DNA of 64,000 nt from NCBI RefSeq assembly GCF_988243305.1, contig NZ_OZ547136.1. One strand, given 5' to 3'. A program made the position numbers and the translations under genes. Shown here piece after piece: positions 1 through 42,288 of the stretch; position 1 is the stretch's first letter, and each line of letters opens with the position of its first letter. The notes beneath the pieces are model-generated. The model was not told the origin of the DNA. It made no database searches and saw nothing but the letters and a program-made list of their open reading frames with translations.

Positions 1-63
1 AGGTGGTTTATTTACAGTCTTAATGAGTGGAAGAGGCGGAGGTTTTTCCTCCGCCTGTGTGCG

Positions 64-1065
64 TCAGAGTTTAGCGAATTTTTCGAGGGTGCGAATAAGC
101 TGCGTGACGAAGCCATATTCGTTATCATACCAGGCGACCGTTTTCACCAGCTGTAAATCGCCCACGGCGGTAATTTCGGTTTGCGTGGCATCAAACACCG
201 ACCCGAAATGGCTGCCAATGATATCGGAAGAGACTATTTCTTCATCGGTATAACCAAATGACTCGTTATTGGTGGTTGCTTGTTTAAGTGCGTTATTCAC
301 CTCTTCGGCAGTCACTTTTTTTGCGAGAATGGACACCAGCTCAGTGACCGAACCTGTTTTGACCGGCACGCGTTGCGCATGACCTTTCAGTTTGCCGCTC
401 AGTTCCGGGATCACCAGACCAATGGCTTTTGCCGCACCTGTAGTGTGGGGAATGATATTTTCTGCCGCTGCACGTGAAGCGCGTAGATCTTTACCACGCG
501 GGCCATCCACCAGTGACTGAGTGCCGGTATAGGCATGAATGGTCGTCATCGTGCCGACTTCTATTCCGAAACTGTCGTGCAAGGCTTTGGCCATCGGTGC
601 AAGACAATTAGTGGTGCATGACGCCACGGAAACAATGGTGTCGTTGCCATCCAGTGTGTCGTCATTGACGTTATAAACGATGGTTTTCATTTCACCGGCA
701 GGGGCGGAAATCAACACCTTCTTCGCACCAGCATCAAAGTGCGCCTGCGATTTCTCGGCGGAGGTATAAAAGCCAGTACATTCGACAATGATTTCTGCGC
801 CTTTCGCTTTCCATGGAATATTTTTAGCCTCTTTTTCGGCGTAAACCGCGATACTTTTTCCATCAACGATAAGTGAATCTTCCGTGAAATCAACGCTCCA
901 GGGGAACGGTCCGTAGTTTGAATCATGTTTCAGCAGGTAGGCGAGAATTTTTGGGGAAGTGAGATCATTAATAGCGACAATGTCTATGTTGCTTTTGACT
1001 TCAAGTAATCGACGCAACACCAGTCGACCGATACGACCAAAACCGTTAATACCAACTTTACTCAT
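64..1065 (-). CDS. gapC: glyceraldehyde-3-phosphate dehydrogenase, GapC-type, intact 333 aa
   Basis: Full-length ORF with N-terminal NAD-binding motif INGFGRIGR and active-site region SCTTNCLAP; position upstream of cybB matches E. coli gapC. Confidence 0.9.
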
Positions 1066-1253
1066 GGTCTTCTCCTGTCAGGAACGTTCGGATGAAAATT
1101 GATCCTTTCCAGGCTTAGACCAGGATGGCGGGATGGGCAATCTACATTCTTGCCGTGAAACGTAACGTACTGAAAACGGGTGAACAATATTTAATGAAAT
1201 TTTAAGAAAAGCTCGTTATGTTAACAGCAAATTGTTTTAAAGCAGGAAATGTT

Positions 1254-1784
1254 ATGGAAAATAAATACTCTAGGTTACAAATCAGCATTCACTGGCTGGT
1301 CTTTTTGCTGGTTATCGCAGCGTATTGCGCAATGGAGTTTCGTGGTTTCTTCCCACGTAGCGATCGGCCGCTCATCAACATGATTCATGTTTCCTGTGGC
1401 ATCACAATTCTCGTGCTGATGGTGGTTCGTCTTTTGTTAAGGCTGAAATACCCAACCCCGCCGATTATACCTAAGCCAAAACCGATGATGACGGGACTGG
1501 CGCATTTGGGACATTTGGTGATCTATCTCCTGTTTATTGCGCTGCCAGTGATTGGTTTGGTGATGATGTATAACCGGGGCAACCCGTGGTTTGCGTTTGG
1601 TATGACGATGCCTTATGCATCAGAGGCCAATTTCGAACGGGTTGATAGCTTAAAGTCGTGGCATGAAACGCTGGCGAACCTGGGATACTTTGTCATCGGG
1701 TTGCACGCTGCGGCTGCACTGGCACACCACTATTTCTGGAAGGACAACACACTTCTACGCATGATGCCGCGTAAACGTTCCTGA
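1254..1784 (+). CDS. cybB: cytochrome b561
   Basis: ORF call 1218-1784 trimmed to ATG at 1254 (MENKYSRLQISIHW...) giving 176 aa as recalled for CybB; AGGAAA upstream; multi-TM haem-binding protein. Confidence 0.9.
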   Translation: MENKYSRLQISIHWLVFLLVIAAYCAMEFRGFFPRSDRPLINMIHVSCGITILVLMVVRLLLRLKYPTPPIIPKPKPMMTGLAHLGHLVIYLLFIALPVIGLVMMYNRGNPWFAFGMTMPYASEANFERVDSLKSWHETLANLGYFVIGLHAAAALAHHYFWKDNTLLRMMPRKRS

Positions 1785-2028
1785 AGGATATTTAAAGAAA
1801 ACGCCTGTACTAAAACCGACCCGTGGTACAGGCGAAGAATACGGGCCTACATCGGAAGCGCCTATTATATTTATTTGTATGACAAATAAAACCATAATCC
1901 TGGTCCATACGTCCATCTGGCTTATCTTTAATCAATTCACCCGATCTTTGATCTCATCAACGGTATCAAAATAAACCAGCGTATAACGTTCAAATCGAAC
2001 ATAAGATTCGATAAACCATGGAGGTTAT

Positions 2029-2202
2029 ATGAAAAAACTGGCACTTATTTTGTTTATGGGAACGCTTGTTTCCTTTTATGCCGATGCCGGGCGCAAACCC
2101 TGTTCTGGTTCGAAAGGGGGGATCTCACACTGTACGGCAGGCGGCAAATTTGTCTGTAATGATGGTTCTATTAGTGCATCGAAAAAAATATGCACTAACT
2201 GA
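2029..2202 (+). CDS. ydcA: small secreted protein YdcA (57 aa)
   Basis: Hand-translated ORF below the 60-aa table cutoff: MKKLALILFMGTLVSFYADAGRKP...KKICTN; signal-peptide-like N-terminus; position between cybB and hokB. Confidence 0.75.
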   Translation: MKKLALILFMGTLVSFYADAGRKPCSGSKGGISHCTAGGKFVCNDGSISASKKICTN

Positions 2203-2275
2203 AGCGTAAAAAAGGGGGGCCATGAGAAAATGAATCCGCTAGTCAGATGCGCGGGGAAAATCCCCGCGCCTGCCC

Positions 2276-2469
<194 letters not shown>

Positions 2470-2483
<14 letters not shown>

Positions 2484-2530
2484 TCGTTGGCCTCGGTTGA
2501 TAGAAATATCGGTCGGGGCCTTCGTCTTTC
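2470..2530 (+). ncRNA. sokB: SokB antisense RNA (approximate position)
   Basis: Inferred from hok/sok family architecture: antisense RNA complementary to the mok translation-initiation region; boundaries not determined from sequence. Confidence 0.35.
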
Positions 2531-2757
2531 TGATTCCCGGTTAGCCTGAAAACAGAAAGTCTCAGGCACCCGTGAGCATCCTATGTGGTTTCCTTAGGGA
2601 CGAAAATAATCACCTGACGAAATTGCGTGCTGTTTTCCAGAATTTTTCGTCATTCGGTTTAGCCCGTTTAATCATTCGTTACTCTCTTCATCCCAATGGC
2701 ATTATTCTTCTCTGCCATAATTGTTGTAAAAATGTGACGCAAAGAGGTTTTTGGTCG

Positions 2758-2784
2758 TAAGAAATTACCGTCAAGTGCCGATGA
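2758..2784 (+). promoter_or_regulatory. candidate sigma-28 (FliA) promoter of trg
   Basis: TAAGAAAT - 11 nt - GCCGATGA, resembling the flagellar class 3 consensus TAAAGTTT-N11-GCCGATAA, about 40 nt upstream of trg ATG. Confidence 0.5.
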
Positions 2785-2823
2785 CTTTCTATCAGGAGTA
2801 AACCTGGAAGAGAGACAACGGTA

Positions 2824-4464
2824 ATGAATACAACTCCCTCACAGCGATTAGGTTTTTTGCATCACATCAGGCTGGTTCCGTTATTTGCCTGCATTCTTGG
2901 CGGTATCTTAGTTCTATTCGCATTAAGTTCAGCTCTGGCTGGCTATTTCCTTTGGCAGGCCGATCGCGATCAGCGGGATGTTACTGCGGAGATTGAGATT
3001 CGGACCGGGTTAGCGAACAGTTCAGATTTTTTGCGTTCAGCCCGGATCAATATGATTCAGGCTGGTGCTGCGAGTCGTATTGCTGAAATGGAAGCAATGA
3101 AGCGAAATATTGCGCAAGCCGAATCGGAGATTAAACAGTCGCAGCAAGGTTATCGTGCTTATCAGAATCGGTCGGTGAAAACACCTGCTGATGAAGCCCT
3201 CGACACTGAATTAAATCAACGCTTCCAGGCTTATATCACGGGTATGCAACCGATGTTGAAATATGCCAAAAATGGCATGTTTGAAGCGATTATCAATCAT
3301 GAAAGTGAGCAGATCCGACCGCTGGATAATGCTTATACCGATATTTTGAGCAAAGCCGTTAAGATACGTAGCGCCAGAGCCAACCAACTGGCGGAACTGG
3401 CCCATCAGCGCACCCGCCTGGGTGGGATGTTCATGATTGGCGCGTTTGTGCTTGCCCTGGTCATGACGCTGATAACATTTATAGTGCTACGTCGGATCGT
3501 CATTCGTCCACTGCAACATGCCGCACAACGGATTGAAAAAATCGCCAGTGGCGATCTGACGATGAATGATGAACCGGCGGGTCGTAATGAAATCGGTCGC
3601 TTAAGTCGTCATTTACAGCAAATGCAGCATTCACTGGGGATGACAGTAGGGACTGTTCGACAGGGTGCGGAAGAGATTTATCGTGGCACCAGCGAAATTT
3701 CAGCTGGCAATGCGGACCTGTCATCTCGCACCGAAGAACAAGCGGCGGCTATCGAACAAACTGCCGCCAGCATGGAGCAACTTACTGCGACGGTGAAACA
3801 GAATGCGGATAACGCGCATCATGCCAGCAAACTGGCGCAAGAGGCTTCTATTAAAGCCAGCGATGGCGGGCAGACGGTTTCCGGTGTAGTAAAAACGATG
3901 GGCGCTATCTCCACGAGTTCGAAGAAAATTTCTGAGATCACCGCCGTCATCAACAGTATTGCTTTCCAGACGAATATTCTGGCACTGAATGCTGCCGTTG
4001 AAGCCGCGCGAGCGGGTGAGCAAGGGCGTGGATTTGCCGTTGTCGCCAGCGAAGTACGGACACTCGCAAGCCGCAGCGCTCAGGCGGCGAAAGAGATTGA
4101 AGGCTTGATCAGTGAATCAGTCAGGTTAATTGACCTGGGGTCGGATGAGGTGGCAATGGCAGGGAAAACCATGAGCACTATTGTTGATGCCGTCGCGAGT
4201 GTCACACATATCATGCAGGAAATCGCCGCTGCCTCGGATGAACAAAGCAGAGGCATAACTCAGGTTAGCCAGGCGATTTCTGAAATGGATAAGGTGACGC
4301 AACAGAATGCTTCTCTGGTAGAAGAGGCCTCAGCGGCGGCGGTGTCCCTTGAAGAACAGGCGGCACGATTAACTGAGGCGGTGGACGTATTCCGTCTGAA
4401 CAAACATTCTGTGTTGGCAGAACCTCGCGGAGCGGGTGAACAAGTTAGTTTCGCTACGGTGTGA
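2824..4464 (+). CDS. trg: methyl-accepting chemotaxis protein III (ribose/galactose sensor)
   Basis: 546-aa ORF with two TM segments, HAMP region and highly conserved MCP signalling domain ([31 protein letters not shown]). Confidence 0.95.
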
Positions 4465-4502
4465 AAATGTTCAAGGAAGGGATCGACAGATCCCTTCACC
4501 TT

Positions 4503-5426
4503 TCAGAACGGCATTGATTTTCGAATAGCGTTAATCATCAACTGGCAACCAGAAGAGAACGTTGCATCTACGCGGGTCAGTATTCCAATCGGTTCGCCTG
4601 CACCATGTCCCGGAACAGGCAGGGCCACCAGTGTGGCATGACGCAGGTCGTCTTTTACAGCGCCAGAAGGGACAAACCACACGTAATCGTATTCAACCGT
4701 AAGTTGACGAGATAGCGAAGCAGACAGCGTTTCGATACAACCCGAAGGAATTTTACATCCCTGGCTCTGCACTAATGCATCTGAATGCTGGCGTGGCGCA
4801 GTGCCTTCTGGTGATACAACGACCGGCCATTCCAGCACCCGGCTTAGCGTTACGTTCTCCTGAAGTAGCGGATGATTAGGGCGGACAACCAGCTTCAGCG
4901 ATTCAAGAAACAGCAGTTCGTAATTAAGTCCGGTCATCAGTTCAGGATCTGACATCCGACCAATGCCGATATCGATTTCCCCGGTTTTTAAACCCGCAAG
5001 AATCATAGGGTTACTCATTGTCGCAACTTGCAAGGTCGTTTCTTTTTGTTGCTGATGAAACTGACCTATAACCGAAGGTAATATCCCCAGTGCCGCAGTA
5101 GGTAGTGCACCAACCCTGACGACATCATTATTAAGACCTTCTTTACGATGAAGCGACTGTCCGGCAGTGTTGATGGCGTCAAGAACTCTGACTGCATGCG
5201 TTAAAAATTGTTCGCCGGGTAAGGTAAGTTGCGCCCCCTGACGACCACGCTCAAACAAGCGAGCGCCCGTCAGTTGCTCCAGTTCATTCAATGTTTTAGA
5301 GAGCGCAGGTTGACTCAAATTAAGGGTTTCAGCCGCGCGCCCCAAAGTTCCTTGTTGTGCGACAGCTACGAATGTATGAAGGTGGCGCAAACGGATGCGC
5401 TGACTAAACAGACTATTTTTTTCCAT
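4503..5426 (-). CDS. ydcI: LysR-family transcriptional regulator
   Basis: ORF call trimmed to internal Met (MEKNSLFSQRIRLRHLHTFVAV...) giving 307 aa; N-terminal HTH plus LysR substrate-binding domain. Confidence 0.85.
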   Translation of the reverse strand: MEKNSLFSQRIRLRHLHTFVAVAQQGTLGRAAETLNLSQPALSKTLNELEQLTGARLFERGRQGAQLTLPGEQFLTHAVRVLDAINTAGQSLHRKEGLNNDVVRVGALPTAALGILPSVIGQFHQQQKETTLQVATMSNPMILAGLKTGEIDIGIGRMSDPELMTGLNYELLFLESLKLVVRPNHPLLQENVTLSRVLEWPVVVSPEGTAPRQHSDALVQSQGCKIPSGCIETLSASLSRQLTVEYDYVWFVPSGAVKDDLRHATLVALPVPGHGAGEPIGILTRVDATFSSGCQLMINAIRKSMPF

Positions 5427-5642
5427 AAGCGATGTTAAAAACGAAGCGGTGTCGCTGACAAGTGAAGTTGTTTGATTATGATAACTTGATTGCAAAATAT
5501 TATTAACAATTAAAGCAATTATGTTACAGCAAAATGGATAATATTGATGTTTTCGCGGCGAGATCACAGTTTGTAAATTCTTCCCGCCGGAGTGAATGCG
5601 GTTACCTACACTCCAGATTACTGACCACTGGAGGCAGACACT

Positions 5643-6986
5643 ATGGCAAACAGCATCACGGCGGATGAGATTCGGGAACAGTTTTCGCAGGCAATGTCAG
5701 CCATGTACCAGCAAGAAGTTCCGCAGTACGGCACGCTGCTGGAACTGGTAGCTGATGTGAATCTGGCTGTGCTGGAAAACAATCCTCAACTGCACGAAAA
5801 AATGGTAAATGCAGACGAGCTGGCGCGACTGAATGTTGAACGTCATGGGGCGATTCGTGTTGGGACTGCACAAGAGCTTGCTACTCTTCGGCGGATGTTT
5901 GCCATTATGGGGATGTACCCGGTGAGCTATTACGATCTCTCGCAGGCGGGGGTGCCGGTACATTCGACAGCATTTCGGCCCATTGATGATGCTTCTCTGG
6001 CGCGTAATCCCTTCCGCGTTTTTACTTCATTACTCCGCCTTGAGCTTATCGAGAACGAAATTTTGCGCCAGAAAGCGGCGGAGATTCTGCGTCAGCGCGA
6101 TATCTTCACCCCACGTTGTCGACAACTGTTAGAGGAATATGAGCAGCGGGGCGGTTTTAACGAAACACAGGCACAGGAGTTTGTGCAGGAAGCCCTGGAA
6201 ACGTTTCGTTGGCACCAGTCAGCAACGGTAGATGAAGAAACCTATCGCGCCTTGCACAACGAACATCGGTTAATTGCTGATGTGGTCTGTTTTCCTGGAT
6301 GCCATATCAACCACCTGACGCCACGTACGCTGGATATTGACCGGGTGCAGTCGATGATGCCTGAATGCGGGATTGAACCCAAAATTCTGATCGAAGGGCC
6401 GCCGCGCCGCGAGGTACCGATTTTACTACGCCAGACCAGCTTTAAAGCACTGGAAGAGACGGTGTTGTTTGCAGGGCAGAAACAGGGTACGCATACCGCG
6501 CGCTTTGGTGAAATAGAGCAGCGTGGTGTGGCATTAACGCCGAAAGGGCGACAACTGTATGATGATCTTCTGCGTAACGCTGGAACCGGGCAGGATAATC
6601 TCACTCACCAAATGCATTTACAGGAAACCTTCCGCACTTTTCCTGACAGTGAGTTTTTAATGCGTCAGCAAGGGTTGGCATGGTTCCGGTACCGTCTGAC
6701 GCCTTCAGGTGAGGCGCATCGTCAGGCGATTCATCCCGGAGACGATCCACAGCCCTTAATTGAACGTGGTTGGGTAGTGGCTCAACCCATTACCTATGAA
6801 GATTTCTTGCCCGTTAGCGCGGCGGGGATCTTCCAGTCAAATCTGGGTAATGAAACGCAGGCACGCAGTCACGGTAATGCCAGTCGCGAAGCATTTGAGC
6901 AGGCGTTGGGCTGCCCGGTTTTGGATGAGTTCCAGCTTTATCAGGAAGCGGAAGAACGCAGTAAACGTCGCTGTGGTTTGCTTTAA
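5643..6986 (+). CDS. ydcJ: DUF1338-family protein YdcJ
   Basis: 447-aa ORF matching recalled YdcJ; divergent from ydcI. Confidence 0.85.
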   Translation: MANSITADEIREQFSQAMSAMYQQEVPQYGTLLELVADVNLAVLENNPQLHEKMVNADELARLNVERHGAIRVGTAQELATLRRMFAIMGMYPVSYYDLSQAGVPVHSTAFRPIDDASLARNPFRVFTSLLRLELIENEILRQKAAEILRQRDIFTPRCRQLLEEYEQRGGFNETQAQEFVQEALETFRWHQSATVDEETYRALHNEHRLIADVVCFPGCHINHLTPRTLDIDRVQSMMPECGIEPKILIEGPPRREVPILLRQTSFKALEETVLFAGQKQGTHTARFGEIEQRGVALTPKGRQLYDDLLRNAGTGQDNLTHQMHLQETFRTFPDSEFLMRQQGLAWFRYRLTPSGEAHRQAIHPGDDPQPLIERGWVVAQPITYEDFLPVSAAGIFQSNLGNETQARSHGNASREAFEQALGCPVLDEFQLYQEAEERSKRRCGLL

Positions 6987-7210
6987 ATTCTGACCATCCG
7001 CCTTTGCAAAAATTTGCCTGATTTTACAAACGAATCAGGCTCATCCCATCGACATAAAAAAATTGCCGATTTATGCATATTCTCTCAGTTCAACAATTGG
7101 ATTATTAATAAATATTGTCTAGAGTGAGCGGTCATAAATAAGCACTTTCTTGCCGCTGAAAACGACCAGCGCGGGACCATTCACAACACCAGAAGGACTC
7201 ACTTTCAGGT

Positions 7211-8866
7211 ATGGATCGTAGACGATTTATTAAAGGTTCAATGGCTATGGCCGCCGTGTGCGGTACCAGCGGCATTGCTTCTCTTTTTTCTCAGGCGGCA
7301 TTCGCGGCAGATTCTGATATTGCCGATGGGCAAACCCAGCGTTTTGACTTCTCCATTCTACAGTCAATGGCGCACGACTTAGCGCAAACCGCGTGGCGTG
7401 GTGCGCCGCGTCCGTTACCTGACACTCTGGCGACAATGACGCCACAGGCTTATAACAGTATTCAATACGACGCCGAAAAATCGCTCTGGCATAACGTTGA
7501 GAACCGTCAACTGGACGCTCAGTTCTTCCATATGGGAATGGGTTTCCGTCGCCGCGTTCGTATGTTTTCTGTTGATCCCGCAACACATCTGGCGCGTGAA
7601 ATTCACTTTCGCCCGGAGTTGTTCAAATACAACGATGCGGGTGTTGATACCAAACAATTAGAAGGGCAAAGCGATCTCGGTTTTGCCGGTTTTCGCGTGT
7701 TTAAAGCCCCCGAACTGGCGCGCCGCGATGTCGTATCATTCCTCGGTGCGAGTTATTTCCGCGCGGTTGATGATACATATCAATACGGTTTGTCGGCTCG
7801 CGGCCTGGCGATCGACACTTACACCGACAGTAAAGAAGAGTTCCCCGACTTTACCGCCTTCTGGTTTGATACGGTAAAACCGGGGGCAACCACCTTTACC
7901 GTTTATGCGTTGCTCGATAGCGCCAGTATTACTGGTGCCTATAAGTTCACTATCCATTGTGAGAAAAGTCAGGTGATTATGGATGTGGAAAATCACCTGT
8001 ATGCGCGCAAAGACATTAAACAGCTGGGCATTGCGCCGATGACCAGCATGTTCAGCTGCGGCACTAATGAACGTCGGATGTGCGACACCATTCATCCGCA
8101 AATCCATGACTCTGATCGTCTGTCCATGTGGCGGGGCAACGGCGAGTGGATTTGCCGTCCGCTGAATAATCCGCAAAAATTGCAGTTCAATGCTTACACC
8201 GACAACAACCCGAAAGGGTTTGGTTTATTGCAACTGGATCGTGATTTCTCTCATTATCAGGACATTATGGGCTGGTATAACAAACGCCCAAGTCTGTGGG
8301 TGGAACCGCGTAACAAGTGGGGTAAGGGCACCATCGGCCTGATGGAAATCCCAACAACGGGCGAAACGCTGGATAACATTGTCTGCTTCTGGCAGCCAGA
8401 AAAAGCTGTAAAAGCGGGTGATGAGTTTGCATTCCAGTATCGTCTGTACTGGAGTGCGCAACCGCCTGTTCATTGCCCATTAGCGCGCGTTATGGCGACG
8501 CGTACCGGCATGGGCGGTTTCCCGGAAGGTTGGGCGCCAGGTGAACACTATCCCGAAAAATGGGCGCGTCGTTTTGCCGTCGATTTCGTTGGTGGTGATC
8601 TGAAAGCTGCCGCACCAAAAGGCATTGAGCCGGTGATTACGCTTTCCAGTGGGGAAGCGAAGCAAATCGAAATTCTCTATATTGAACCCATTGATGGTTA
8701 TCGTATTCAGTTTGACTGGTATCCGACTTCGGACTCCACTGATCCGGTCGATATGCGGATGTATCTGCGTTGTCAGGGCGACGCTATCAGTGAAACATGG
8801 CTGTATCAGTATTTCCCGCCAGCGCCGGATAAACGTCAGTATGTTGACGACCGCGTGATGAGTTAA
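7211..8866 (+). CDS. opgD: glucans biosynthesis protein D (periplasmic, Tat signal)
   Basis: 551-aa ORF; N-terminal twin-arginine motif [14 protein letters not shown]...AFA; MdoG/OpgD family. Confidence 0.92.
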
Positions 8867-9005: not shown

Positions 9006-9230
9006 ATGTTTCCAGAATACCGAGATTTAATATCCCGTCTGAAAAACGAAAATCCTCGCTTTATGTCCTTGTTCGATAAACACAATAAACTTGATCATGA
9101 AATTGCCAGAAAGGAAGGTTCCGACGGTCGAGGGTACAATGCGGAAGTGGTCCGCATGAAAAAACAAAAGCTACAGTTAAAAGATGAGATGCTCAAAATC
9201 CTGCAGCAGGAGAGTGTCAAAGAGGTGTAA
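9006..9230 (+). CDS. ydcH: DUF465-family small protein YdcH
   Basis: 74-aa ORF from ATG 9006 (MFPEYRDLISRLK...) with GGGAG upstream; table call starts 2 codons earlier. Confidence 0.8.
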   Translation: MFPEYRDLISRLKNENPRFMSLFDKHNKLDHEIARKEGSDGRGYNAEVVRMKKQKLQLKDEMLKILQQESVKEV

Positions 9231-9292
9231 ACTTTCCTAAGCCGCCAGCCAGGCGGCTTTTTTAACAACTGCATGGAGCGACTGGAGATAAG

Positions 9293-9832
9293 ATGACTGA
9301 AACGATAAAAGTAAGCGAATCACTTGAATTACATGCTGTTGCAGAAAATCACGTCACACCTCTTTATCAGTTAATCTGTAAAAATAAAACCTGGTTACAG
9401 CAGTCGCTAAACTGGCCGCAGTTTGTTCAAAGTGAGGAGGACACGCGAAAAACGGTGCAGGGTAATGTGATGTTGCATCAACGCGGCTATGCCAAAATGT
9501 TCATGATTTTCAAAGAAGATGATCTTATCGGCGTTATCTCGTTTAATCGTATTGAACCACTGAATAAAACCGCTGAAATCGGCTACTGGCTGGACGAATC
9601 TCATCAGGGGCAGGGGATCATTTCTCAGGCGCTGCAGGCATTGATTCATCATTACGCCCAGTCTGGTGAACTTAGACGCTTCGTGATCAAATGTCGGGTG
9701 GACAATGTGCAAAGCAACCAGGTCGCCTTGCGCAATGGTTTTATCCTTGAAGGTTGTCTGAAACAGGCTGAGTTCCTGAATGATGCCTATGATGATGTGA
9801 ACTTATACGCGCGTATTATCGATTCACAATAA
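9293..9832 (+). CDS. rimL: ribosomal-protein-serine N-acetyltransferase (L7/L12)
   Basis: 179-aa GNAT-fold ORF matching recalled RimL. Confidence 0.88.
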
Positions 9833-10804
9833 CCCTGCCAGCGGCGTTCGCGTAATGCGCTCCTCGCCGTTAATGACTTTTGGACCACGGACATGAACCG
9901 TGTCGCCATCAAAGGCTTCAACGACGGCGTGGTCGGTTAACTCCACATGTTTTTCAATTATCACCGCACCTGTAATACGGCTCTCACCTTGTATTACAAC
10001 GTGCTCGTCGAGCAGAATCGGTCCGCCACGTACCACGGCATTTCCGCCAATCAAGACATGATGTTTTAACACACAATTACCTTCCACAATGGCATATTCC
10101 GCCACCTGCGAACTGTAATGAATCGTCGGAATGGCATCTTCTTCTATGCCAGCTTTCACCTGCGCGTGACCGTAGACTTTAGCGCAATCGCATAGCCAGA
10201 CGTTGTTCTCTTCATTACCTTCAACGCTGGCAAAATCAAAAACTTCGGCGCGATGTTCAATAAAAGCATACCGGACGACGGCATCGCCATAAATTTGTGC
10301 CTGGTGAACAATACGCGAGGCGCTAACCCTTGCGCGATCATAAATTTGTAGCAGGAGTTGATGGTCGGGCGTTAAGCCTTGTGCGGGGACGATCATAGAA
10401 TGTTGATCAATTAAGGCGTGACCAAGTATTCTACATTGACCACAAACTAATGAGTCACGAATGGTGACGCTGTCACTTATATATGCACCCTGGCTGATTT
10501 CACTATTATCGATCCAGACATTATCCGTTGCGTAAACCTCTCCCCACAGTACGCTGGTGCCGGTGATACGCGTATTACCGGAAATCACCGTTCCGCCGAA
10601 CGCAATAGCATTCTGATCGTAAATCCAGCAATTTCCTTCCTGCGCTAACACCGTTTCGCGATCGATCCAGCCGCCAGCGGTTCCTGCTATCACATCGTTA
10701 AAATCGCTCATGGCGATAATTTGCCGTAATAACACACTTTTTTTAGTGCCATCATCCTGATAACTAAAGGCTCGCTGTTCTTCACTTAGACGATATTTGC
10801 GCAT
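9824..10804 (-). CDS. ydcK: hexapeptide-repeat protein YdcK
   Basis: 326-aa ORF with left-handed beta-helix hexapeptide repeats; convergent with rimL, 9-nt overlap. Confidence 0.85.
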
Positions 10805-10927
10805 AGCGTTTTCCCACAGGTGACTTACTATAACCGTAGCAAATTCTGCGGCTCTGGCTATGCTCGAGAAAATTCCATAAAATGCATTTCAAATATACTT
10901 TATAAATTAAACAAAATGAGTAAGAAG

Positions 10928-11920
10928 ATGCAGAGCGATAAAGTGCTCAATTTGCCGGCAGGCTACTTTGGTATTGTGTTGGGGACGATAGGGATGGGAT
11001 TTGCCTGGCGCTATGCCAGCCAGGTTTGGCAGGTCAGCCACTGGTTAGGGGATGGGCTAGTGATTCTGGCGATGATCATCTGGGGATTATTGACTAGCGC
11101 ATTTATTACCCGACTCATACGCTTTCCGCATAGCGTGCTGGCGGAAGTTCGCCATCCAGTGATGAGCAGTTTTGTGAGTTTGTTTCCGGCAACGACGATG
11201 CTGGTGGCGATTGGTTTTGTTCCGTGGTTTCGCCCACTGGCGGTGTGCCTGTTCAGTTTTGGCGTCGTGGTGCAACTGGCTTATGCCGCCTGGCAAACTG
11301 CGGGATTATGGCGCGGATCTCATCCTGAAGAAGCTACCACGCCTGGACTGTATCTGCCGACAGTTGCCAACAACTTTATCAGCGCAATGGCCTGTGGTGC
11401 ATTGGGCTACACCGACGCCGGTCTGGTGTTTTTAGGCGCAGGCGTTTTCTCATGGTTAAGCCTGGAACCGGTGATCTTGCAGCGTCTGCGCAGTTCGGGA
11501 GAATTACCCACGGCACTGCGGACCTCACTCGGCATTCAGCTCGCTCCTGCACTGGTGGCCTGTAGTGCCTGGCTGAGCGTCAACGGCGGCGAGGGTGACA
11601 CGCTGGCGAAAATGCTTTTCGGTTATGGACTGCTGCAACTGCTGTTTATGCTACGTCTGATGCCATGGTATCTCTCCCAGCCATTTAATGCTTCATTCTG
11701 GAGTTTCTCGTTCGGCGTATCTGCACTGGCAACCACCGGTTTGCATATGGGGAGTGGCAGCGATAATGGATTTTTCCATACGCTGGCGGTGCCGCTGTTT
11801 ATCTTTACCAATTTTATTATTGCAATACTGCTCATCCGTACTTTTGCGCTTCTGATGCAGGGAAAATTGTTAGTCAGAACCGAGCGCGCCGTTTTAATGA
11901 AAGCAGAGGACAAAGAATGA
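10928..11920 (+). CDS. tehA: tellurite resistance protein TehA (TDT-family transporter)
   Basis: ORF call 10820 trimmed to ATG 10928 ([19 protein letters not shown]...) giving 330 aa; multi-TM. Confidence 0.9.
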
Positions 11921-12510
11921 TCATTCGTGATGAAAACTATTTTACTGATAAATATGAATTAACCCGCACACACTCTGAAGTGCTGGAAGCGGTGAAAGTG
12001 GTTAAACCCGGTAAAACGCTGGATCTGGGCTGTGGCAATGGTCGTAACAGTCTTTACCTGGCAGCCAATGGTTATGAAGTTGACGCATGGGATAAAAATG
12101 CCATGAGTATCGCCAACGTCGAGCGCATTAAATCCATTGAAAATCTGGATAATTTACACACCCGGGTCGTTGACCTGAATAACCTCACGTTTGATGGGCA
12201 ATACGATTTTATTCTTTCGACTGTGGTGCTGATGTTCCTTGAGGCTAAAACCATCCCAGGGCTGATTGCCAATATGCAACGTTGCACTAAACCTGGCGGT
12301 TACAACCTGATTGTGGCGGCGATGGATACCGCTGATTATCCATGTACCGTCGGCTTCCCGTTTGCCTTCAAAGAGGGAGAATTACGTCGATATTACGAAG
12401 GCTGGGAGATGGTGAAATACAATGAAGACGTCGGCGAGCTGCACCGCACCGACGCCAACGGTAATCGTATTAAACTGCGTTTCGCCACGATGCTGGCACG
12501 TAAAAAATGA
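11917..12510 (+). CDS. tehB: tellurite methyltransferase TehB (SAM-dependent)
   Basis: 197-aa ORF with SAM-binding motif [15 protein letters not shown] overlap with tehA stop. Confidence 0.92.
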
Positions 12511-12812
12511 TCCGGTAAGAACAAAGCGCGTGAAAATTCCCCACGCTGAGATGGTTTACTGTTCTTCTTTTCGGTAAGCATATTTTTTATCGAAGGGATG
12601 TGAAATTAATCACAGTAGTCGAAGTTTTTTAGCAGCTTAACTTACTGAAATTTAACTACTGGTGATTGACTTAGCCCCTTTTTCGGCATTGACTATGTCG
12701 TCTGAAAAGGGGCTGAAAAATTTATTTTCACCAACACTTTTTTTGCCACAACACGAAGCGGCGCTTTTTGCTATAACTTAGAAAGTAATATAATCATCTC
12801 AGGAAACTATTC

Positions 12813-13481
12813 ATGCTTACCACATCATTTGCGAAAGTTGCAGCTTTATGCGGCTTGTTGGCTCTGTCTGGTTGTGCCTCTAAAATCACCCAGCCAGATA
12901 AATATTCTGGTTTTTTAAACAATTACTCTGATTTAAAAGAAACAACCTCAGCAACAGGTAAACCTGTTTTACGTTGGGTAGACCCGAGTTTTGATCAAAG
13001 CAAATATGACAGCATCGTCTGGAACCCAATCACTTATTATCCGGTGCCAAAACCTTCTACCCAGGTAGGGCAGAAAGTTCTGGATAAAATTTTGAACTAT
13101 ACCAACACCGAAATGAAAGAAGCGATAGCGCAGCGTAAACCACTGGTTACCACCGCTGGGCCGCGTAGTCTGATTTTCCGTGGGGCCATTACCGGTGTTG
13201 ATACCAGCAAAGAAGGGCTTCAATTCTATGAAGTGGTTCCTGTCGCATTAGTGGTCGCGGGGACGCAAATGGCGACGGGCCACCGTACCATGGATACTCG
13301 CCTGTATTTTGAAGGTGAGCTGATTGATGCAGCGACTAATAAACCGGTTATCAAAGTCGTTCGTCAGGGCGAAGGTAAAGACCTGAATAACGAAAGTACG
13401 CCAATGGCTTTCGAAAATATTAAACAAGTTATTGATGACATGGCGACCGATGCCACCATGTTTGACGTTAACAAAAAGTAG
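12813..13481 (+). CDS. ydcL: lipoprotein YdcL
   Basis: 222-aa ORF; signal peptide with lipobox LSGCAS. Confidence 0.85.
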   Translation: MLTTSFAKVAALCGLLALSGCASKITQPDKYSGFLNNYSDLKETTSATGKPVLRWVDPSFDQSKYDSIVWNPITYYPVPKPSTQVGQKVLDKILNYTNTEMKEAIAQRKPLVTTAGPRSLIFRGAITGVDTSKEGLQFYEVVPVALVVAGTQMATGHRTMDTRLYFEGELIDAATNKPVIKVVRQGEGKDLNNESTPMAFENIKQVIDDMATDATMFDVNKK

Positions 13482-13489
13482 TTCCAGAC

Positions 13490-13516
13490 GCGCCATCGTT
13501 AGATGGCGCTTTTTAT
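13490..13516 (+). terminator. rho-independent terminator after ydcL
   Basis: GCGCCATC-GTTA-GATGGCGC hairpin followed by TTTTT, 9 nt after ydcL stop. Confidence 0.7.
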
Positions 13517-14688
13517 TATCGGTTTCTGTCAGCGATTAAATTCAACACCACGTAACAAACGCCTCCGGCAATTAATCCCCAAAACGCAGAACCAATCCCG
13601 AACAGCGTCAATCCACTTGCCGTTACCAGAAATGCCACCACCGCCGCGTCGCGCTCACGCTCATTATGCAGCGCCTGATACAAACTGCCGCCAATGGTAC
13701 TCAACAGCGCCAGACCTGCCAGCATCTGGATCCAACTTACGGGCAGGGCAGCCATCATCCCGGTAATGGCACTACCAAACAGACCTGCGAGCAAATAGAA
13801 AATGCCTGCAACGGCAGCGGCCAGCCAACGTTGATCTTTATCCGGATGCGCTTCCGGGCTTTGGCAAATAGCCGCGGTGATTGCCGCAATACCGACGGAA
13901 TAAACGCCGAAAGGGGAAAAAACCAGTGCCAGCAATCCAGTAAATACAATTAATGGCGAAACAGGAGCTGAATATCCGGCTGCTTTCATTGCTGCGATAC
14001 CCGGTGCGTTTTGCGATGCCATCGTCACCAGAAAAAGGGGGAGTGCAACGCTCAGGCTGTGAGCAAACGAAAAATCAGGGGTAATATAAGTGGGGAGAAC
14101 GGGTTTAAAGACAACATCAGTTGTGACAACGTCACCTTGCGCGATAACGATCACGATCCCAATAATCATCGCGGCAATTACCGCATAGCGCGGCGCAACG
14201 GCCCTGGTTGCCAGCCATACCAGCAACATACTGCCACACAACGTAAATTGACCCTCCAGACTGGCAAACGCCTGTAAACCAAAGCGTAATAAAATCCCGG
14301 CAAGCATTGCCGCCGCAAGCGAGTGCGGAATAATGCGCATCAGACGAGCAAAGAGTCCCGTTATGCCGCAGAGGACTATTAACGCGTTGGTGACAATAAA
14401 AACGCCGATGGCTTCGTTAAGTGTTAGTCCCTGTAATCCGGTGACCAACAAAGCCGCGCCAGGCGTTGACCATGCGGTGAGAACAGGTACGCGATACCAT
14501 AATGTCAGAGCCAGCGTACTGACGCCCATTGCCAGCCCCAGCGCCGTCATCCAGCCAGAGATTTGTGCAGTGGTGGCTCCGGCGACAATCGCTGCTTGCC
14601 AGATTATTGCCGCTGAACTGGCATAGCCAATTAATACCGCCAGAAACCCCGCCAGTAGCGTGGGTGGAGGAATAGAAAACAGACGCAT
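13516..14688 (-). CDS. ydcO: BenE-family inner-membrane transporter YdcO
   Basis: ORF call trimmed to Met at 14688 (MRLFSIPPPTLLAGF...) preceded by GAGGTGA; about 390 aa, multi-TM. Confidence 0.85.
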   Translation of the reverse strand: MRLFSIPPPTLLAGFLAVLIGYASSAAIIWQAAIVAGATTAQISGWMTALGLAMGVSTLALTLWYRVPVLTAWSTPGAALLVTGLQGLTLNEAIGVFIVTNALIVLCGITGLFARLMRIIPHSLAAAMLAGILLRFGLQAFASLEGQFTLCGSMLLVWLATRAVAPRYAVIAAMIIGIVIVIAQGDVVTTDVVFKPVLPTYITPDFSFAHSLSVALPLFLVTMASQNAPGIAAMKAAGYSAPVSPLIVFTGLLALVFSPFGVYSVGIAAITAAICQSPEAHPDKDQRWLAAAVAGIFYLLAGLFGSAITGMMAALPVSWIQMLAGLALLSTIGGSLYQALHNERERDAAVVAFLVTASGLTLFGIGSAFWGLIAGGVCYVVLNLIADRNR

Positions 14689-14779
14689 GGTCACCTCGTG
14701 CGTTATAGCGTACAGGTACCGTAGCATTTGTCCGTTATAACGCACAAGTGATAAACTTCCGCTTTGCCGGAGGAGTCAC

Positions 14780-15316
14780 ATGGAAAATCTCACTCGCTTT
14801 TTATCCACCACACTTAAACAACTACGTCAGCAGCGCGGCTGGAGTCTTTCGCGACTGGCAGAAGCGACGGGCGTTTCTAAAGCGATGTTAGGGCAGATTG
14901 AGCGTAATGAATCCAGCCCGACGGTCGCGACATTATGGAAAATTGCCACCGGGTTGAACGTGCCATTTTCGACATTTATTTCTCCGCCACAGTCCGCTAC
15001 GCCTTCAGTTTATGATCCACAACAGCAGGCGATGGTGATCACTTCACTGTTTCCTTATGATCCACAACTCTGCTTTGAACACTTCTCGATTCAGATGGCA
15101 CTTGGTGCAATAAGTGAATCGACGCCCCATGAAAAGGGGGTAATCGAACATGTCGTCGTCATTGATGGACAACTTGATCTGTGCGTTGATGGTGAATGGC
15201 AGAGCCTTAATTGTGGGGAAGGCGCTCGATTTGCTGCAGACGTCACGCATGTCTATCGTAATGGAGGGGAGCAAACCGTACATTTTCATTCCCTCATCCA
15301 TTACCCGCGCAGTTAA
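14780..15316 (+). CDS. ydcN: XRE-family HTH regulator with C-terminal cupin domain
   Basis: 178-aa ORF; HTH region LSRLAEATGVSKAMLGQIERNESSP; divergent from ydcO. Confidence 0.85.
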   Translation: MENLTRFLSTTLKQLRQQRGWSLSRLAEATGVSKAMLGQIERNESSPTVATLWKIATGLNVPFSTFISPPQSATPSVYDPQQQAMVITSLFPYDPQLCFEHFSIQMALGAISESTPHEKGVIEHVVVIDGQLDLCVDGEWQSLNCGEGARFAADVTHVYRNGGEQTVHFHSLIHYPRS

Positions 15317-15388
15317 GCGGGAAAACTATTTCGCAACGTCGCGCTTGTGGCTAAAATAGCCGCCATTTTTCAGCTACTGGATAAGAAA

Positions 15389-17350
15389 GTGACCGTATCT
15401 TCTCATCGTCTTGAACTGTTAAGTCCGGCACGCGATGCCGCCATTGCCCGCGAAGCTATTTTGCACGGTGCCGATGCTGTTTATATCGGCGGCCCTGGTT
15501 TTGGTGCCCGTCATAATGCCAGTAATAGCCTGAAAGATATTGCCGAGCTGGTGCCGTTTGCCCATCGTTATGGTGCAAAAATTTTCGTCACGCTTAACAC
15601 AATTTTGCATGATGATGAGCTGGAACCCGCGCAACGGCTGATTACTGACCTCTACCAGACCGGCGTCGATGCGCTGATTGTTCAGGATATGGGGATTCTG
15701 GAACTTGATATTCCGCCGATTGAACTGCACGCCAGTACGCAGTGCGACATTCGTACAGTAGAAAAAGCGAAGTTCCTCTCTGATGTTGGCTTCACGCAGA
15801 TTGTGCTGGCGCGAGAGCTGAATCTTGAGCAGATCCGCGCGATTCACCAGGCCACGGACGCGACCATTGAATTCTTTATTCATGGCGCACTGTGCGTGGC
15901 CTATTCGGGTCAGTGCTACATTTCTCATGCGCAAACAGGGCGTAGCGCCAACCGTGGCGATTGCTCGCAGGCGTGCCGTTTGCCATACACATTGAAAGAC
16001 GATCAGGGGCGGGTGGTTTCCTATGAAAAACATCTGCTGTCGATGAAAGATAACGATCAGACTGCCAACCTCGGCGCGCTGATTGATGCTGGCGTACGCT
16101 CCTTCAAGATTGAAGGGCGTTACAAAGATATGAGCTACGTGAAGAATATCACCGCCCATTATCGCCAGATGCTGGATGCCATTATTGAAGAACGTGGCGG
16201 TCTGACGCGTGCTTCATCAGGTCGTACTGAACATTTCTTTGTTCCATCGACGGAAAAGACTTTCCACCGTGGTAGCACAGATTATTTTGTGAATGCCCGT
16301 AAAGGCGATATTGGCGCGTTCGATTCGCCGAAATTTATCGGCCTGCCGGTGGGTGAAGTATTGAAAGTGGCGAAAGATCATCTCGATGTTGCCGTTTCCG
16401 AACCACTGGCAAATGGCGATGGCCTGAACGTGATGATTAAACGTGAAGTCGTCGGCTTTCGTGCCAATACGGTCGAGAAAACCGGAGAAAATCAGTACCG
16501 CGTCTGGCCCAATGAAATGCCAGCAGAGTTGCACAAAATTCGCCCGCATCACCCACTAAACCGTAATCTTGATCATAACTGGCAGCAGGCACTGACCAAA
16601 ACCTCCAGCGAACGTCGGGTGGCGGTAGACATTGAACTGGGCGGCTGGCAGGAACAACTGATTCTGACCCTCACCAGTGAAGAGGGTGTCAGCATCACGC
16701 ATACGCTGGACGGGCAGTTCGACGAAGCCAATAACGCCGAAAAAGCAATGAACAATCTAAAGGATGGTCTGGCAAAACTGGGGCAAACCATCTATTACGC
16801 CCGCGATGTGCAAATTAATTTGCCGGGTGCGCTGTTTGTACCAAACAGTCTGTTAAACCAGTTCCGCCGTGAAGCCGCCGACATGCTGGATGCTGCACGT
16901 CTTGCCGGTTACCAGCGGGGCAGCCGTAAACCGGTTGCTGATCCTGCGCCGGTTTATCCGCAAACGCATCTGAGTTTCCTCGCGAACGTATACAACCAGA
17001 AAGCGCGTGAATTTTATCATCGCTATGGTGTGCAGCTGATTGACGCGGCGTATGAGGCACATGAAGAGAAGGGCGAAGTCCCGGTGATGATCACTAAGCA
17101 TTGTCTGCGCTTTGCCTTCAATCTGTGCCCGAAACAGGCGAAAGGCAATATCAAAAGCTGGAAGGCGACGCCAATGCAGCTGGTTAACGGCGATGAAGTA
17201 TTAACGCTGAAATTTGATTGCCGTCCGTGTGAGATGCACGTCATCGGCAAAATTAAAAATCACATTCTGAAAATGCCGTTACCGGGAAGCGTAGTGGCAT
17301 CCGTTAGTCCGGATGAGCTGCTGAAAACATTGCCGAAGCGAAAAGGGTAA
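15389..17350 (+). CDS. ydcP: peptidase U32-family protein YdcP (RlhA, linked to 23S rRNA hydroxycytidine formation)
   Basis: Large ORF with U32 family sequence; start ambiguous between GTG 15347 and GTG 15389, the latter giving the recalled 653 aa. Confidence 0.8.
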   Translation: MTVSSHRLELLSPARDAAIAREAILHGADAVYIGGPGFGARHNASNSLKDIAELVPFAHRYGAKIFVTLNTILHDDELEPAQRLITDLYQTGVDALIVQDMGILELDIPPIELHASTQCDIRTVEKAKFLSDVGFTQIVLARELNLEQIRAIHQATDATIEFFIHGALCVAYSGQCYISHAQTGRSANRGDCSQACRLPYTLKDDQGRVVSYEKHLLSMKDNDQTANLGALIDAGVRSFKIEGRYKDMSYVKNITAHYRQMLDAIIEERGGLTRASSGRTEHFFVPSTEKTFHRGSTDYFVNARKGDIGAFDSPKFIGLPVGEVLKVAKDHLDVAVSEPLANGDGLNVMIKREVVGFRANTVEKTGENQYRVWPNEMPAELHKIRPHHPLNRNLDHNWQQALTKTSSERRVAVDIELGGWQEQLILTLTSEEGVSITHTLDGQFDEANNAEKAMNNLKDGLAKLGQTIYYARDVQINLPGALFVPNSLLNQFRREAADMLDAARLAGYQRGSRKPVADPAPVYPQTHLSFLANVYNQKAREFYHRYGVQLIDAAYEAHEEKGEVPVMITKHCLRFAFNLCPKQAKGNIKSWKATPMQLVNGDEVLTLKFDCRPCEMHVIGKIKNHILKMPLPGSVVASVSPDELLKTLPKRKG

Positions 17351-17893: not shown

Positions 17894-18070
17894 GTGAAAC
17901 AAAGCGAGTTCAGACGTTGGCTCGAATCTCAGGGCGTCGATGTAGCGAATGGCAGCAACCATTTAAAACTCAGGTTTCACGGGAGGCGCAGTGTCATGCC
18001 GCGTCACCCCTGCGATGAGATTAAAGAACCATTGCGTAAAGCAATCCTGAAACAACTCGGTTTGAGTTAA
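17894..18070 (+). CDS. hicA: HicA mRNA interferase toxin (58 aa, GTG start)
   Basis: Hand-translated ORF below table cutoff: (V/M)KQSEFRRWLESQGVDVANGSNHLKLRFHGRRSVMPRHPCDEIKEPLRKAILKQLGLS; GGAGG upstream; immediately precedes hicB. Confidence 0.88.
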   Translation: MKQSEFRRWLESQGVDVANGSNHLKLRFHGRRSVMPRHPCDEIKEPLRKAILKQLGLS

Positions 18071-18094
18071 TCGCCAATTAAAAAGGTTAATGAC

Positions 18095-18532
<438 letters not shown>

Positions 18533-25832: not shown

Positions 25833-26642
25833 ATGAAAGTTCAATTGTATAAATTCACGGAAGATAAAAATAAAACCCTTACCTTCAGGTGGACGAAAAA
25901 ACACTTTGAGTTTTGTATGGATAATAAAATCTTTTTAAATCATAAGGGGAAGAAGTCGTATAAAGAAAGAAATTTATTTCTTTTCTCAAAAGGTGACAAG
26001 ATAACAATTGAAGATAATGTTATTGCTGAAGAATATTCAACAATGCCTGTAAAAAATTTCTCCAGTGTCGGCGCTTTTTCATTCCCGACCTGTCATTTTA
26101 CAGGGAATATACATATAGGTCGATTTTGTAGTATTGCATCAAATGTAAAAATAATGGGTGGAAATCATCCTTTGAATCGTTTTACTACTCACATGATGAC
26201 TTATAACGGTGAATTTGATAAGTTTGCTAAGAGTGAGTTTGAACGTAGCTGGACATTGAAACCATTCATTACCAAACCTGAAAATCCGATTATAGGAAAT
26301 GATGTCTGGATAGGAAATGATGTTGTACTGAAAGGTGGCATCGCAATAGGTGATGGTGCTGTTATTGCTGCCAATTCCGTTGTTACCAAAGATGTGCCCC
26401 CATATGCCATAGTTGCAGGAGTTCCTGCAAAAATAATCAGATTTAGATTTGATTCAAATGTTATTGATGAATTGTTGAGAATAAAGTGGTGGAATTATAA
26501 TTACTCAGATCTTCCGGATAATAACAAATGTGATGATATAAATTATTTTGTTGAAGAGATGAATCGATTGATATCAAATGGAAATATTCAAGAGATGGAC
26601 TATAAAAAATTCAATCTTTCTGAGATATTTAGAGACCTATAA
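25833..26642 (+). CDS. xenobiotic acetyltransferase (XAT class, Vat/CatB-like hexapeptide-repeat)
   Basis: C-terminal 200 aa closely parallels streptogramin and chloramphenicol acetyltransferases (IGNDVWIGNDVVLKGGIAIGDGAVIAANSVVTKDVPPYAIVAGVPAKIIRFRF...IKWWNY); true start may be internal; AT-rich gene. Confidence 0.75.
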   Translation: MKVQLYKFTEDKNKTLTFRWTKKHFEFCMDNKIFLNHKGKKSYKERNLFLFSKGDKITIEDNVIAEEYSTMPVKNFSSVGAFSFPTCHFTGNIHIGRFCSIASNVKIMGGNHPLNRFTTHMMTYNGEFDKFAKSEFERSWTLKPFITKPENPIIGNDVWIGNDVVLKGGIAIGDGAVIAANSVVTKDVPPYAIVAGVPAKIIRFRFDSNVIDELLRIKWWNYNYSDLPDNNKCDDINYFVEEMNRLISNGNIQEMDYKKFNLSEIFRDL

Positions 26643-37348: not shown

Positions 37349-37633
37349 ATGCCTTTAGCAGCCAAACTCACCGACAAAGGCACCCAGCACGACGGTTATT
37401 ACGAGACCGTCATCACCGCCGGGTCATCCACCGTCTTTATCGATGGTCTTCCCGCAGCCCGTCAGGGAGATCCGCTGACGCCGCATGCTAAACCGAAGCA
37501 TCCCCCTCATCCCCGTAAAATCGCCAGAGGTTCTTCAACCGTCTTTATTGACGGCCTGCCCGCCGCCAGAAGCGGTGATGCTGTTGACTGCGGCGGCGTG
37601 GTTATTGGTGGCGGTACGGTAAATATAGGCTGA
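37349..37633 (+). CDS. PAAR-domain protein (T6SS spike tip)
   Basis: 94-aa ORF with repeated GSSTVFIDGLPAARxGD motifs (PAAR motif); strong AGGAGG RBS; 18 nt upstream of vgrG. Confidence 0.85.
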   Translation: MPLAAKLTDKGTQHDGYYETVITAGSSTVFIDGLPAARQGDPLTPHAKPKHPPHPRKIARGSSTVFIDGLPAARSGDAVDCGGVVIGGGTVNIG

Positions 37634-37651
37634 TATGTCTGAGAGGTATTT

Positions 37652-39616
37652 ATGTCCTTAAAAGGTCTTCGCTTTACGCTGGAGGTTGACGGCCAGGAGC
37701 CGGACACCTTTGCAGTGGTGAATTTCAGGTTAATCCAGAACCAGTCATATCCGTTTGTGATGAGTGTGGATGTTGCCAGCGACTCTTTTATGCAGACGGC
37801 GGAGATGCTGCTGGAGAAGAAGGCGACACTGACCATCTGGCAGGGCGCAGTGGCGCAGCGTTATGTCACCGGCGTGGTGGCGGGTTTTGGCATGCAGGAG
37901 AATAACGGCTGGCAGATGCGTTATCACCTGCGTATTGAGCCGCCGTTATGGCGGTGCGGGCTGCGGCAGAACTTTCGTATCTTCCAGCAGCAGGATATCC
38001 GGACGATATCGGCCACGTTACTGAACGAGAACGGCGTCACGGAGTGGACGCCGCTGTTTTATGAGGACCATCCGGCGCGGGAGTTCTGTGTCCAGTACGG
38101 AGAGAGCGACCTGGCGTTTCTGTCCCGGCTGTGGGCGGAGGAGGGAATTTTCTTCTTTGAGCGGTTTGCGGCGGACAGTCCGGAGCAGAAGCTGACGCTG
38201 TGCGACGATGTGGCGGGGCTGTCACAGGCGGGGGAGTTTCCGTTTAACCCGGACACATCGGCAGGAGCGGAGACGGAGTGTGTCAGTATGTTCCGTTATG
38301 AGGCGCATGTCCGCCCGTCATCGGTGCAGAGCCAGGATTACACGTTTAAGGTGCCGGACTGGCCGGGGATGTATGAGCAGCAGGGTGAGAACCTGAACGG
38401 ACAGCTGGCGCAGTATGAGATATTTGATTATCCGGGAAGGTACAAGGATGAACAGCACGGCAAGGATTTCACGCTGTACCGGATGGAGAGCCTGCGCAGT
38501 GATGCGGAAAAGGCCACAGGGCAGAGTAATTCACCGAAGCTGTGGCCGGGAACGCGGTTTACGCTGACGGGGCATCCGCAGAAGATGCTGAACCGTGAAT
38601 GGCAGGTGGTACAGAGCATACTGTCAGGAAGCCAGCCGCAGGCGCTGCACGGCAGCCAGGGGAGAGGAACCACGCTGGGCAATCAGTTAGAGGTGATACC
38701 GGCGGACCGGACGTGGCGTCCACGGCTGCAAAGCAAACCGAAGGTGGACGGGCCACAGAGCGCCATTGTCACCGGTCCTGCGGGAGAGGAAATCTTCTGC
38801 GACGAACACGGACGTGTGCGAGTGCAGTTTCACTGGGACAGGTATAACCCGGCAACGGAGGCGAGTTCGTGCTGGGTGAGGGTGTCACAGGCGTGGGCGG
38901 GGCCGGGGTTCGGTAACCTGGCGATACCGCGGGTGGGCCAGGAGGTGATTGTTGATTTCCTGAACGGCGACCCGGACCAGCCGATAATCATGGGACGGAC
39001 ATACCATGAGGACAACCGTTCACCGGGGAGTCTGCCGGGGACGAAGACGCAGATGACGATACGGTCGAAGACCTATAAAGGTAGCGGATTTAACGAGCTG
39101 CGGTTTGAAGACGCCACCAGTAATGAGCAGGTGTATATCCATGCGCAGAAGAACATGGATACGGAGGTGCTCAACGACCGGACAACGGATGTGAAACATG
39201 ACCATACGGAAACCATCGGTAACAACCAGAAGATAACGGTGGTGAAGGGCCAGACGGTGAATGTGGGGAGCAAAAAGGAAGGTGGTCATGACCAGAAAGT
39301 GACAGTGGCGAATGACCAGACCATTACGGTACAAAACGATCAGCGGCTGGATGTTACCCACGATCGTCACAAGGATGTAGGGAACGATCAAATCAGTAAG
39401 ATAATAGGAAAAGATACCGAAGAAGTCGTGAAATCCCAGGATATTAAAGTTGGAGAAGATTACAGCCTGACAGTTACCAACAGCCTCACCATTAAAGTCG
39501 GTGAATGCTTACTGAAAATGAATAAGGACGGTACTATCATTCTCAATGGTAAAAGTATCCAGATTGAAGGAAAAGATAAAATCAATATTTTCGGCGCAGA
39601 TATTGATCTGGATTAA
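37652..39616 (+). CDS. vgrG: VgrG spike protein (T6SS)
   Basis: 654-aa ORF; characteristic VgrG N-terminus (MSLKGLRFTLEVDG...FAVVNFRL...) and C-terminal Val/Gly-rich beta-helical repeats (VKGQTVNVG..., TVQNDQRLDV...). Confidence 0.9.
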   Translation: MSLKGLRFTLEVDGQEPDTFAVVNFRLIQNQSYPFVMSVDVASDSFMQTAEMLLEKKATLTIWQGAVAQRYVTGVVAGFGMQENNGWQMRYHLRIEPPLWRCGLRQNFRIFQQQDIRTISATLLNENGVTEWTPLFYEDHPAREFCVQYGESDLAFLSRLWAEEGIFFFERFAADSPEQKLTLCDDVAGLSQAGEFPFNPDTSAGAETECVSMFRYEAHVRPSSVQSQDYTFKVPDWPGMYEQQGENLNGQLAQYEIFDYPGRYKDEQHGKDFTLYRMESLRSDAEKATGQSNSPKLWPGTRFTLTGHPQKMLNREWQVVQSILSGSQPQALHGSQGRGTTLGNQLEVIPADRTWRPRLQSKPKVDGPQSAIVTGPAGEEIFCDEHGRVRVQFHWDRYNPATEASSCWVRVSQAWAGPGFGNLAIPRVGQEVIVDFLNGDPDQPIIMGRTYHEDNRSPGSLPGTKTQMTIRSKTYKGSGFNELRFEDATSNEQVYIHAQKNMDTEVLNDRTTDVKHDHTETIGNNQKITVVKGQTVNVGSKKEGGHDQKVTVANDQTITVQNDQRLDVTHDRHKDVGNDQISKIIGKDTEEVVKSQDIKVGEDYSLTVTNSLTIKVGECLLKMNKDGTIILNGKSIQIEGKDKINIFGADIDLD

Positions 39617-39631
39617 TCTGGAGAAATTAAC

Positions 39632-42175: not shown

Positions 42176-42288
42176 TTATTGCTCGCAAATTTTTAATAAA
42201 CAAATAGCACAATAAAATACTCGGTATCTATGGTATATACCTAATAAACAAGGGCAGGGAAAGATCATCAGAAGTACACTTTTTGTAC

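Follow-up and report, generated by a model that had tools for sequence, protein, structure and literature searches.

Among the systems closest to the locus described here are IS608 of Helicobacter pylori and ISDra2, "peel and paste" elements that carry a Y1 transposase and subterminal hairpins at both ends, and whose insertion, on the 3' side of a short AT-rich motif, leaves the target unduplicated; the motif is TTAC for IS608 and TTGAT for ISDra2. IS609, a member of the IS200/IS605 family, resembles both elements in its transposase, its manner of insertion, and, apparently, its hairpins, whereas its target is TTTAT and its tnpA and tnpB genes are divergent. The element is transposed as a single strand by a TnpA of the Y1/HUH type, inserting after TTTAT with the target left unduplicated. 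The second protein of such elements, TnpB, is guided by an omega-RNA, and the complex reportedly targets the donor joint or vacant site, as described by Karvelis et al. (PMC8612924). The guide RNA spans the 3' portion of tnpB and the right end of the element and continues into the flanking DNA, and TnpB cleaves "donor joints", in which the target motif (TAM) abuts the right-end flank (10.1101/2023.03.14.532601). In transposon-free strains, the homologous sites carry the donor-joint sequence, and the TAM of Geobacillus TnpB2 is also TTTAT (Meers et al., 10.1101/2023.03.14.532601). In E. coli K-12, the yncK gene of IS609 carries a stop codon and the element is inactive (PMC2891674), and the single IS609 of this strain underwent 0 transpositions in mutation-accumulation lines (PMC5009759).

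The stretch of E. coli DNA analysed here (64,000 nucleotides, referred to as the window) contains the convergent genes ydcL and ydcO, for which these names are used in thousands of E. coli records with matching genes (Table 1). The ydcL gene ends in a TAG codon at 13479-13481, as read from the sequence and the list of open reading frames, and the outer boundary of ydcO corresponds to the GTG start of the longest open reading frame, the start being placed more internally in annotated relatives. The first-pass annotation had described a junction of 34 bp in which the ydcL stop codon is followed by a terminator hairpin and then directly by the ydcO stop codon, and this description is correct in every detail: the ydcL stop codon ends with position 13481, position 13516 is the first plus-strand base of the ydcO stop codon, and the spacer between them measures exactly 34 bp. 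The same spacing is found in PCN033, EcN, O157:H7 H6437, G6/7, and Z1323HEC0462. In O157:H7 H6437, the annotation gives ydcO as a frameshifted pseudogene, and in strain 95JB1 an IS1203 insertion splits ydcL (3364-5345 of the retrieved locus, L003), so that both genes appear to be dispensable in some lineages.

Table 1. Features at the ydcL-ydcO junction, in window coordinates.
Feature	Position	Strand	Basis or remark
ydcL (DUF3313 lipoprotein gene)	12813..13481	+	Open reading frame list; Pfam DUF3313, E = 4e-63; ydcL annotation in matching genomes
Intergenic spacer of 34 bp separating the stop codons of the convergent genes ydcL and ydcO	13482..13515	.	Sequence read directly
Predicted intrinsic (Rho-independent) terminator of ydcL	13490..13514	+	Terminator scan, RNA fold
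TTTAT, IS609 target motif (TAM)	13512..13516	+	Element inserts directly 3', between 13516 and 13517
ydcO stop codon TAA (plus strand TTA)	13516..13518	-	IS609 splits it as TA/A (coding strand) in K-12
ydcO (BenE-family transporter gene)	13516..14745	-	Open reading frame list; Pfam BenE, E = 1e-161; annotated relatives
Predicted guide-matching target of the omega-RNA of the K-12 copy, beside the TAM	13517..13536	+	K-12 right-end flank; predicted from sequence

The annotated stop codons of ydcL and ydcO lie 1,779 bp apart in K-12, so the 34-bp junction is not shared by that strain. The MG1655 record places a mobile genetic element, IS609, at 1503161..1504908 (1,748 bp), between ydcL (b1431) and ydcO (b1433), as the first-pass annotation had stated when it named an IS609-type insertion with insQ at this place; the element does carry insQ (b1432, plus strand), and to this has to be added the tnpA pseudogene yncK on the minus strand. 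An MG1655 derivative shows the same ydcL-IS609-ydcO arrangement. When the K-12 locus was compared with the window by BLAST, bases 1-4417 matched 9099-13516 and bases 6166-8417 matched 13517-15768, so that both collinear segments break exactly between window positions 13516 and 13517. The bases of the K-12 locus without a counterpart in the window (4418-6165) are the annotated IS609, with all 1,748 bases identical, and the flanks rejoin where they are absent, in agreement with the earlier proposal that this strain has an empty site. Deletion of IS609 from K-12 in silico recreates the window junction with no base duplicated or lost, and the deleted K-12 sequence matches the window at every base between -212 and +84, the nearest mismatches lying at -213 and +85. 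The junction reads ...GGCGCTTTTTAT/TATCGGTTTCTG... in the window; in K-12, the left junction reads ...GGCGCTTTTTAT/CCGGTGCGCC... (around the motif, ...CTTTTTAT/CCGGTG...) and the right junction reads ...GGATGTCAA/TATCGGTTTCTG.... Searches with blastn and tblastn found neither IS609 DNA nor an InsQ-like open reading frame elsewhere in the 64-kb window. The 34-bp spacer is the unoccupied counterpart of the K-12 IS609 site and, relative to the IS609 of MG1655, the site in the window is an exact pre-insertion counterpart in which the flanks, the TTTAT, and the right-end flank are all in place.

The element had been placed between the two genes, and the locus is right; more precisely, IS609 is not cleanly intergenic and sits inside the stop codon of ydcO. 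The annotated ydcO of MG1655 begins at 1504905, within an IS609 that ends at 1504908, and its stop codon is a TGA supplied by the TCAA of the right end of the element. As the insertion point lies inside the stop codon, YdcO of K-12 has gained one tyrosine and terminates at a TGA that belongs to the element: the C-terminus reads ...ADRNRY* in MG1655 and ...ADRNR* in the window, which lacks the element and the extra tyrosine and keeps its own ydcO TAA. The terminator of ydcL, including its T run, lies intact upstream of IS609 in K-12. The insertion would date to an ancestor of the K-12-like lineages, where the element landed directly after TTTAT, inside the ydcO stop codon, and this event would have extended ydcO by one codon with an element-derived stop while leaving the ydcL terminator unharmed.

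The identity of the target motif is supported by five independent insertion sites of IS609, namely ydcL/ydcO, a DUF3251 gene, gltX/yfeD, tetR near ytfB, and yhgE/hslO. TTTAT stands directly 5' of the left end of the element in each of the five (5/5), and the 3' flanks of these sites are unrelated, which identifies TTTAT as the IS609 target motif. A literature search found no TAM given for IS609 and no publication that treats insQ and ydcO jointly. The TTTAT of the window consists of the last three T residues of the terminator U tract followed by AT. The motif occurs 274 times in the window and, being so common, is necessary rather than site-defining. At the opposite end, the element always terminates in ...TCAA at the five independent sites, and this TCAA is located 10 nt past a hairpin. 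The predicted subterminal hairpins at both ends of IS609 share a common CCTTCAGGGCG core and fold only modestly better than shuffled sequences (z = -1.3 and -2.0). The TnpA protein of an intact IS609 copy belongs to the Pfam Y1_Tnp family (E = 2e-41), and InsQ contains OrfB_IS605, Cas12f1-like TNB, and HTH domains (Pfam), matches ISDra2 TnpB structures with E = 2e-54, and has DAG, IED, and NAD motifs that align with the RuvC positions of a TnpB relative.

The hairpin in the spacer has the composition GCGCCATC-GTTA-GATGGCGC (13490-13509) and is followed by TTTTT at 13510-13514. It begins 8 nt past the ydcL stop codon, and its 8-bp stem contains 6 GC pairs and encloses a 4-nt loop; as RNA it folds with -16.7 kcal/mol (z = -3.7), and 0/200 shuffled sequences fold equally well. 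Rho-independent terminators at the ends of convergent genes are likewise built from a GC-rich stem and a T5 run, and the hairpin is best read as the terminator of ydcL, a function predicted from these features. In G6/7, the stem is kept, the loop is different, and the stop codon is TGA. A bidirectional terminator that also serves ydcO was considered and rejected: read on the minus strand, the bases after the hairpin are GTCTGG, without a U tract, and a consensus terminator scan called the site of the ydcL/ydcO spacer on the plus strand only. Because the U tract is missing on the ydcO strand, the structure is not a canonical bidirectional terminator, and it differs from the bidirectional terminators of convergent gene ends in this asymmetry, its U tract serving the ydcL strand only. 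Rfam, at the gathering threshold, matched no RNA family within the spacer or the IS609 of K-12. The only gathering-level matches lie elsewhere in the window, a RydC sRNA at 1795-1858 (minus strand, 90.5 bits) and the sok antitoxin RNA of a hok/sok-type locus at 2420-2571 (minus strand, 114 bits).

The distribution of the two alleles was surveyed among complete E. coli genomes, in which a site was scored as empty when a single unbroken match spanned the junction, and as occupied when matches covered 80% or more of the ydcL-IS609-ydcO query from K-12. The junction is uninterrupted in 2,135 of the 5,426 genomes (~39%), whereas IS609 is present at ydcL/ydcO in 3,252/5,426 (about 60%); with 2,135 empty genomes, the state of the window is a common allele. 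The empty genomes include EcN, O157:H7, PCN033, G6/7, which is the most divergent match at the junction (97.0% identity), and Z1323HEC0462, which is the closest collinear relative of the window; K-12 and O111-type strains are among those that are occupied. We take K-12 to belong to phylogroup A, O111 to B1, EcN to B2, PCN033 to D, and O157:H7 to E, and on these presumed assignments the split between empty and occupied genomes is consistent with the element having inserted once, on the A/B1 branch, and with an ancestral empty form. The empty junction was also sought in species-representative genomes: a scan with an exact pattern gave 0 matches, with a degenerate pattern that disallowed the EcN-type GTT variant, and a second scan gave only one match, in a 493-aa open reading frame of Limnobaculum eriocheiris. 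This match was rejected as an outgroup empty site, being a chance match inside an open reading frame.

The reading that best accounts for the locus, to which we assign a probability of roughly 90%, is that the spacer is the IS609-free form of the site, that the element was inserted after TTTAT in a K-12-like ancestor, and that the site in the window is ancestral and has never been occupied. It is most likely that the strain of the window never had IS609, the polarity of the change being one that we infer. Excision of IS200/IS605 elements is scarless, and sequence alone therefore cannot separate a site that was never occupied from one that was precisely vacated. The lineage of the window might once have carried IS609 and lost it through a TnpA-mediated precise excision that restored the donor joint, leaving no scar, as reported for the excision of IS200/IS605 elements (10.1101/2023.03.14.532601). 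Copies of IS609 with an intact tnpA do exist in E. coli, as in strain 116, and different lineages carry different tnpA lesions at ydcL/ydcO, which indicates that the element did not arrive there already inactivated. Such a loss is nevertheless improbable here, since many divergent lineages are empty, among them G6/7 and the nearest relative of the window, and several independent losses would be needed; moreover, TnpB is reported to counteract losses of this kind (10.1101/2023.03.14.532601), and the 64-kb window holds neither a remnant nor another copy of the element. That homologous recombination replaced an occupied ydcL-ydcO segment with one from an empty-site strain is very hard to credit, as nothing positive indicates that the lineage was ever occupied and the nearest collinear relative, Z1323HEC0462, is empty too, even though the window looks mosaic, with an identity that differs by segment (98.5%, 99.2%, and 99.5%).

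Where IS609 is present at ydcL/ydcO, its transposase gene has been damaged in more than one way. The tnpA of K-12 has a stop at codon 96 (L96; element at 4418-6165 of the K-12 locus, L001), and the copies in T28R (4418-6160 of L002) and 95JB1 (5381-7123 of L003) share a 5-bp deletion instead. As the lesions of K-12 and T28R/95JB1 differ, the element was potentially mobile for some time after its insertion. For the same reason, the proposal that shared tnpA lesions prove the element to have been immobile before the split of A and B1 is unsupported. A K_EC180 copy at another site, gltX/yfeD, has the codon-96 stop as well. The insQ gene is intact in all of the copies examined (8/8), and its pairwise dN/dS is about 0.2 (range ~0.14-0.38), values that derive from small counts of 3-29 differences.

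The layout of the empty site is that of the donor joint cleaved by TnpB-omega-RNA in the work of Meers et al., with TTTAT abutting the right-end flank. From 13517 onwards, the window (TATCGGTTTCTGTCAG...) is identical to the right flank of IS609 in K-12 for 85 bp, and TTTAT (13512-13516) together with this sequence is predicted to be the natural target of the guide of the K-12 copy. The empty site would accordingly be expected to be cut by the TnpB-omega-RNA of the K-12 element. A further and doubtful proposition is that the empty junction is a standing target of RNA-guided homing, in which InsQ cuts the empty allele and recombination then converts it. A copy of the K-12 type, with a dead tnpA and a conserved insQ, would transcribe a guide for the sequence from 13517 onwards, and cleavage and conversion could follow once horizontal transfer has brought an occupied and an empty allele together. 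If true, homing could help explain how about 60% of E. coli genomes come to carry a transposase-dead element at this single site. Alternatively, InsQ may have been retained for a host function.

The empty site is an ordinary presence/absence difference between strains that is in essence already known, since the annotation of the reference genome includes IS609 and genome comparisons routinely turn up strains without it. The finding itself matters little, being visible in any pairwise genome alignment. It has two minor uses: the two alleles form a natural before-and-after pair that defines the ends of IS609, its TTTAT target, and its effect on the ydcO stop codon, and the empty allele provides an authentic TAM and target sequence for work on InsQ as a putative RNA-guided nuclease.

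Several other features of the window were observed. For positions 1-25000, the best identity among complete E. coli genomes is 98.5%, and an IS150 present in the best matches is absent from the window, another empty site. For positions 25001-50000, Z1323HEC0462 matches with 99.2% identity and is the only one of the 5,426 complete E. coli genomes that is collinear, and an 801-bp segment around the ydcL-ydcO junction is 99.5% identical to PCN033. These segment-wise identities suggest that the strain belongs to a rarely sequenced or mosaic lineage. According to the annotation of Z1323HEC0462, the interval from yncJ to ydcR contains a type II toxin-antitoxin pair, hicA/hicB, at about 17894-18532 of the window (5294-5932 of that retrieved locus, L015), and a gene for a CatB-related O-acetyltransferase lies between patD and yncL at about 25833-26642 (13233-14042 of L015). 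An orphan type VI secretion island occupies about 37350-47640, flanked by yncG and a sensor-domain gene; judged from its collinearity with Z1323HEC0462, it contains genes for PAAR, VgrG, DUF2169, PAAR-like, DUF4279, and M23 peptidase proteins along with ISEc1 (ISAs1-family) copies, and it includes two repeats of ~700 bp with 89% identity, at 42289-42984 and 46945-47639.
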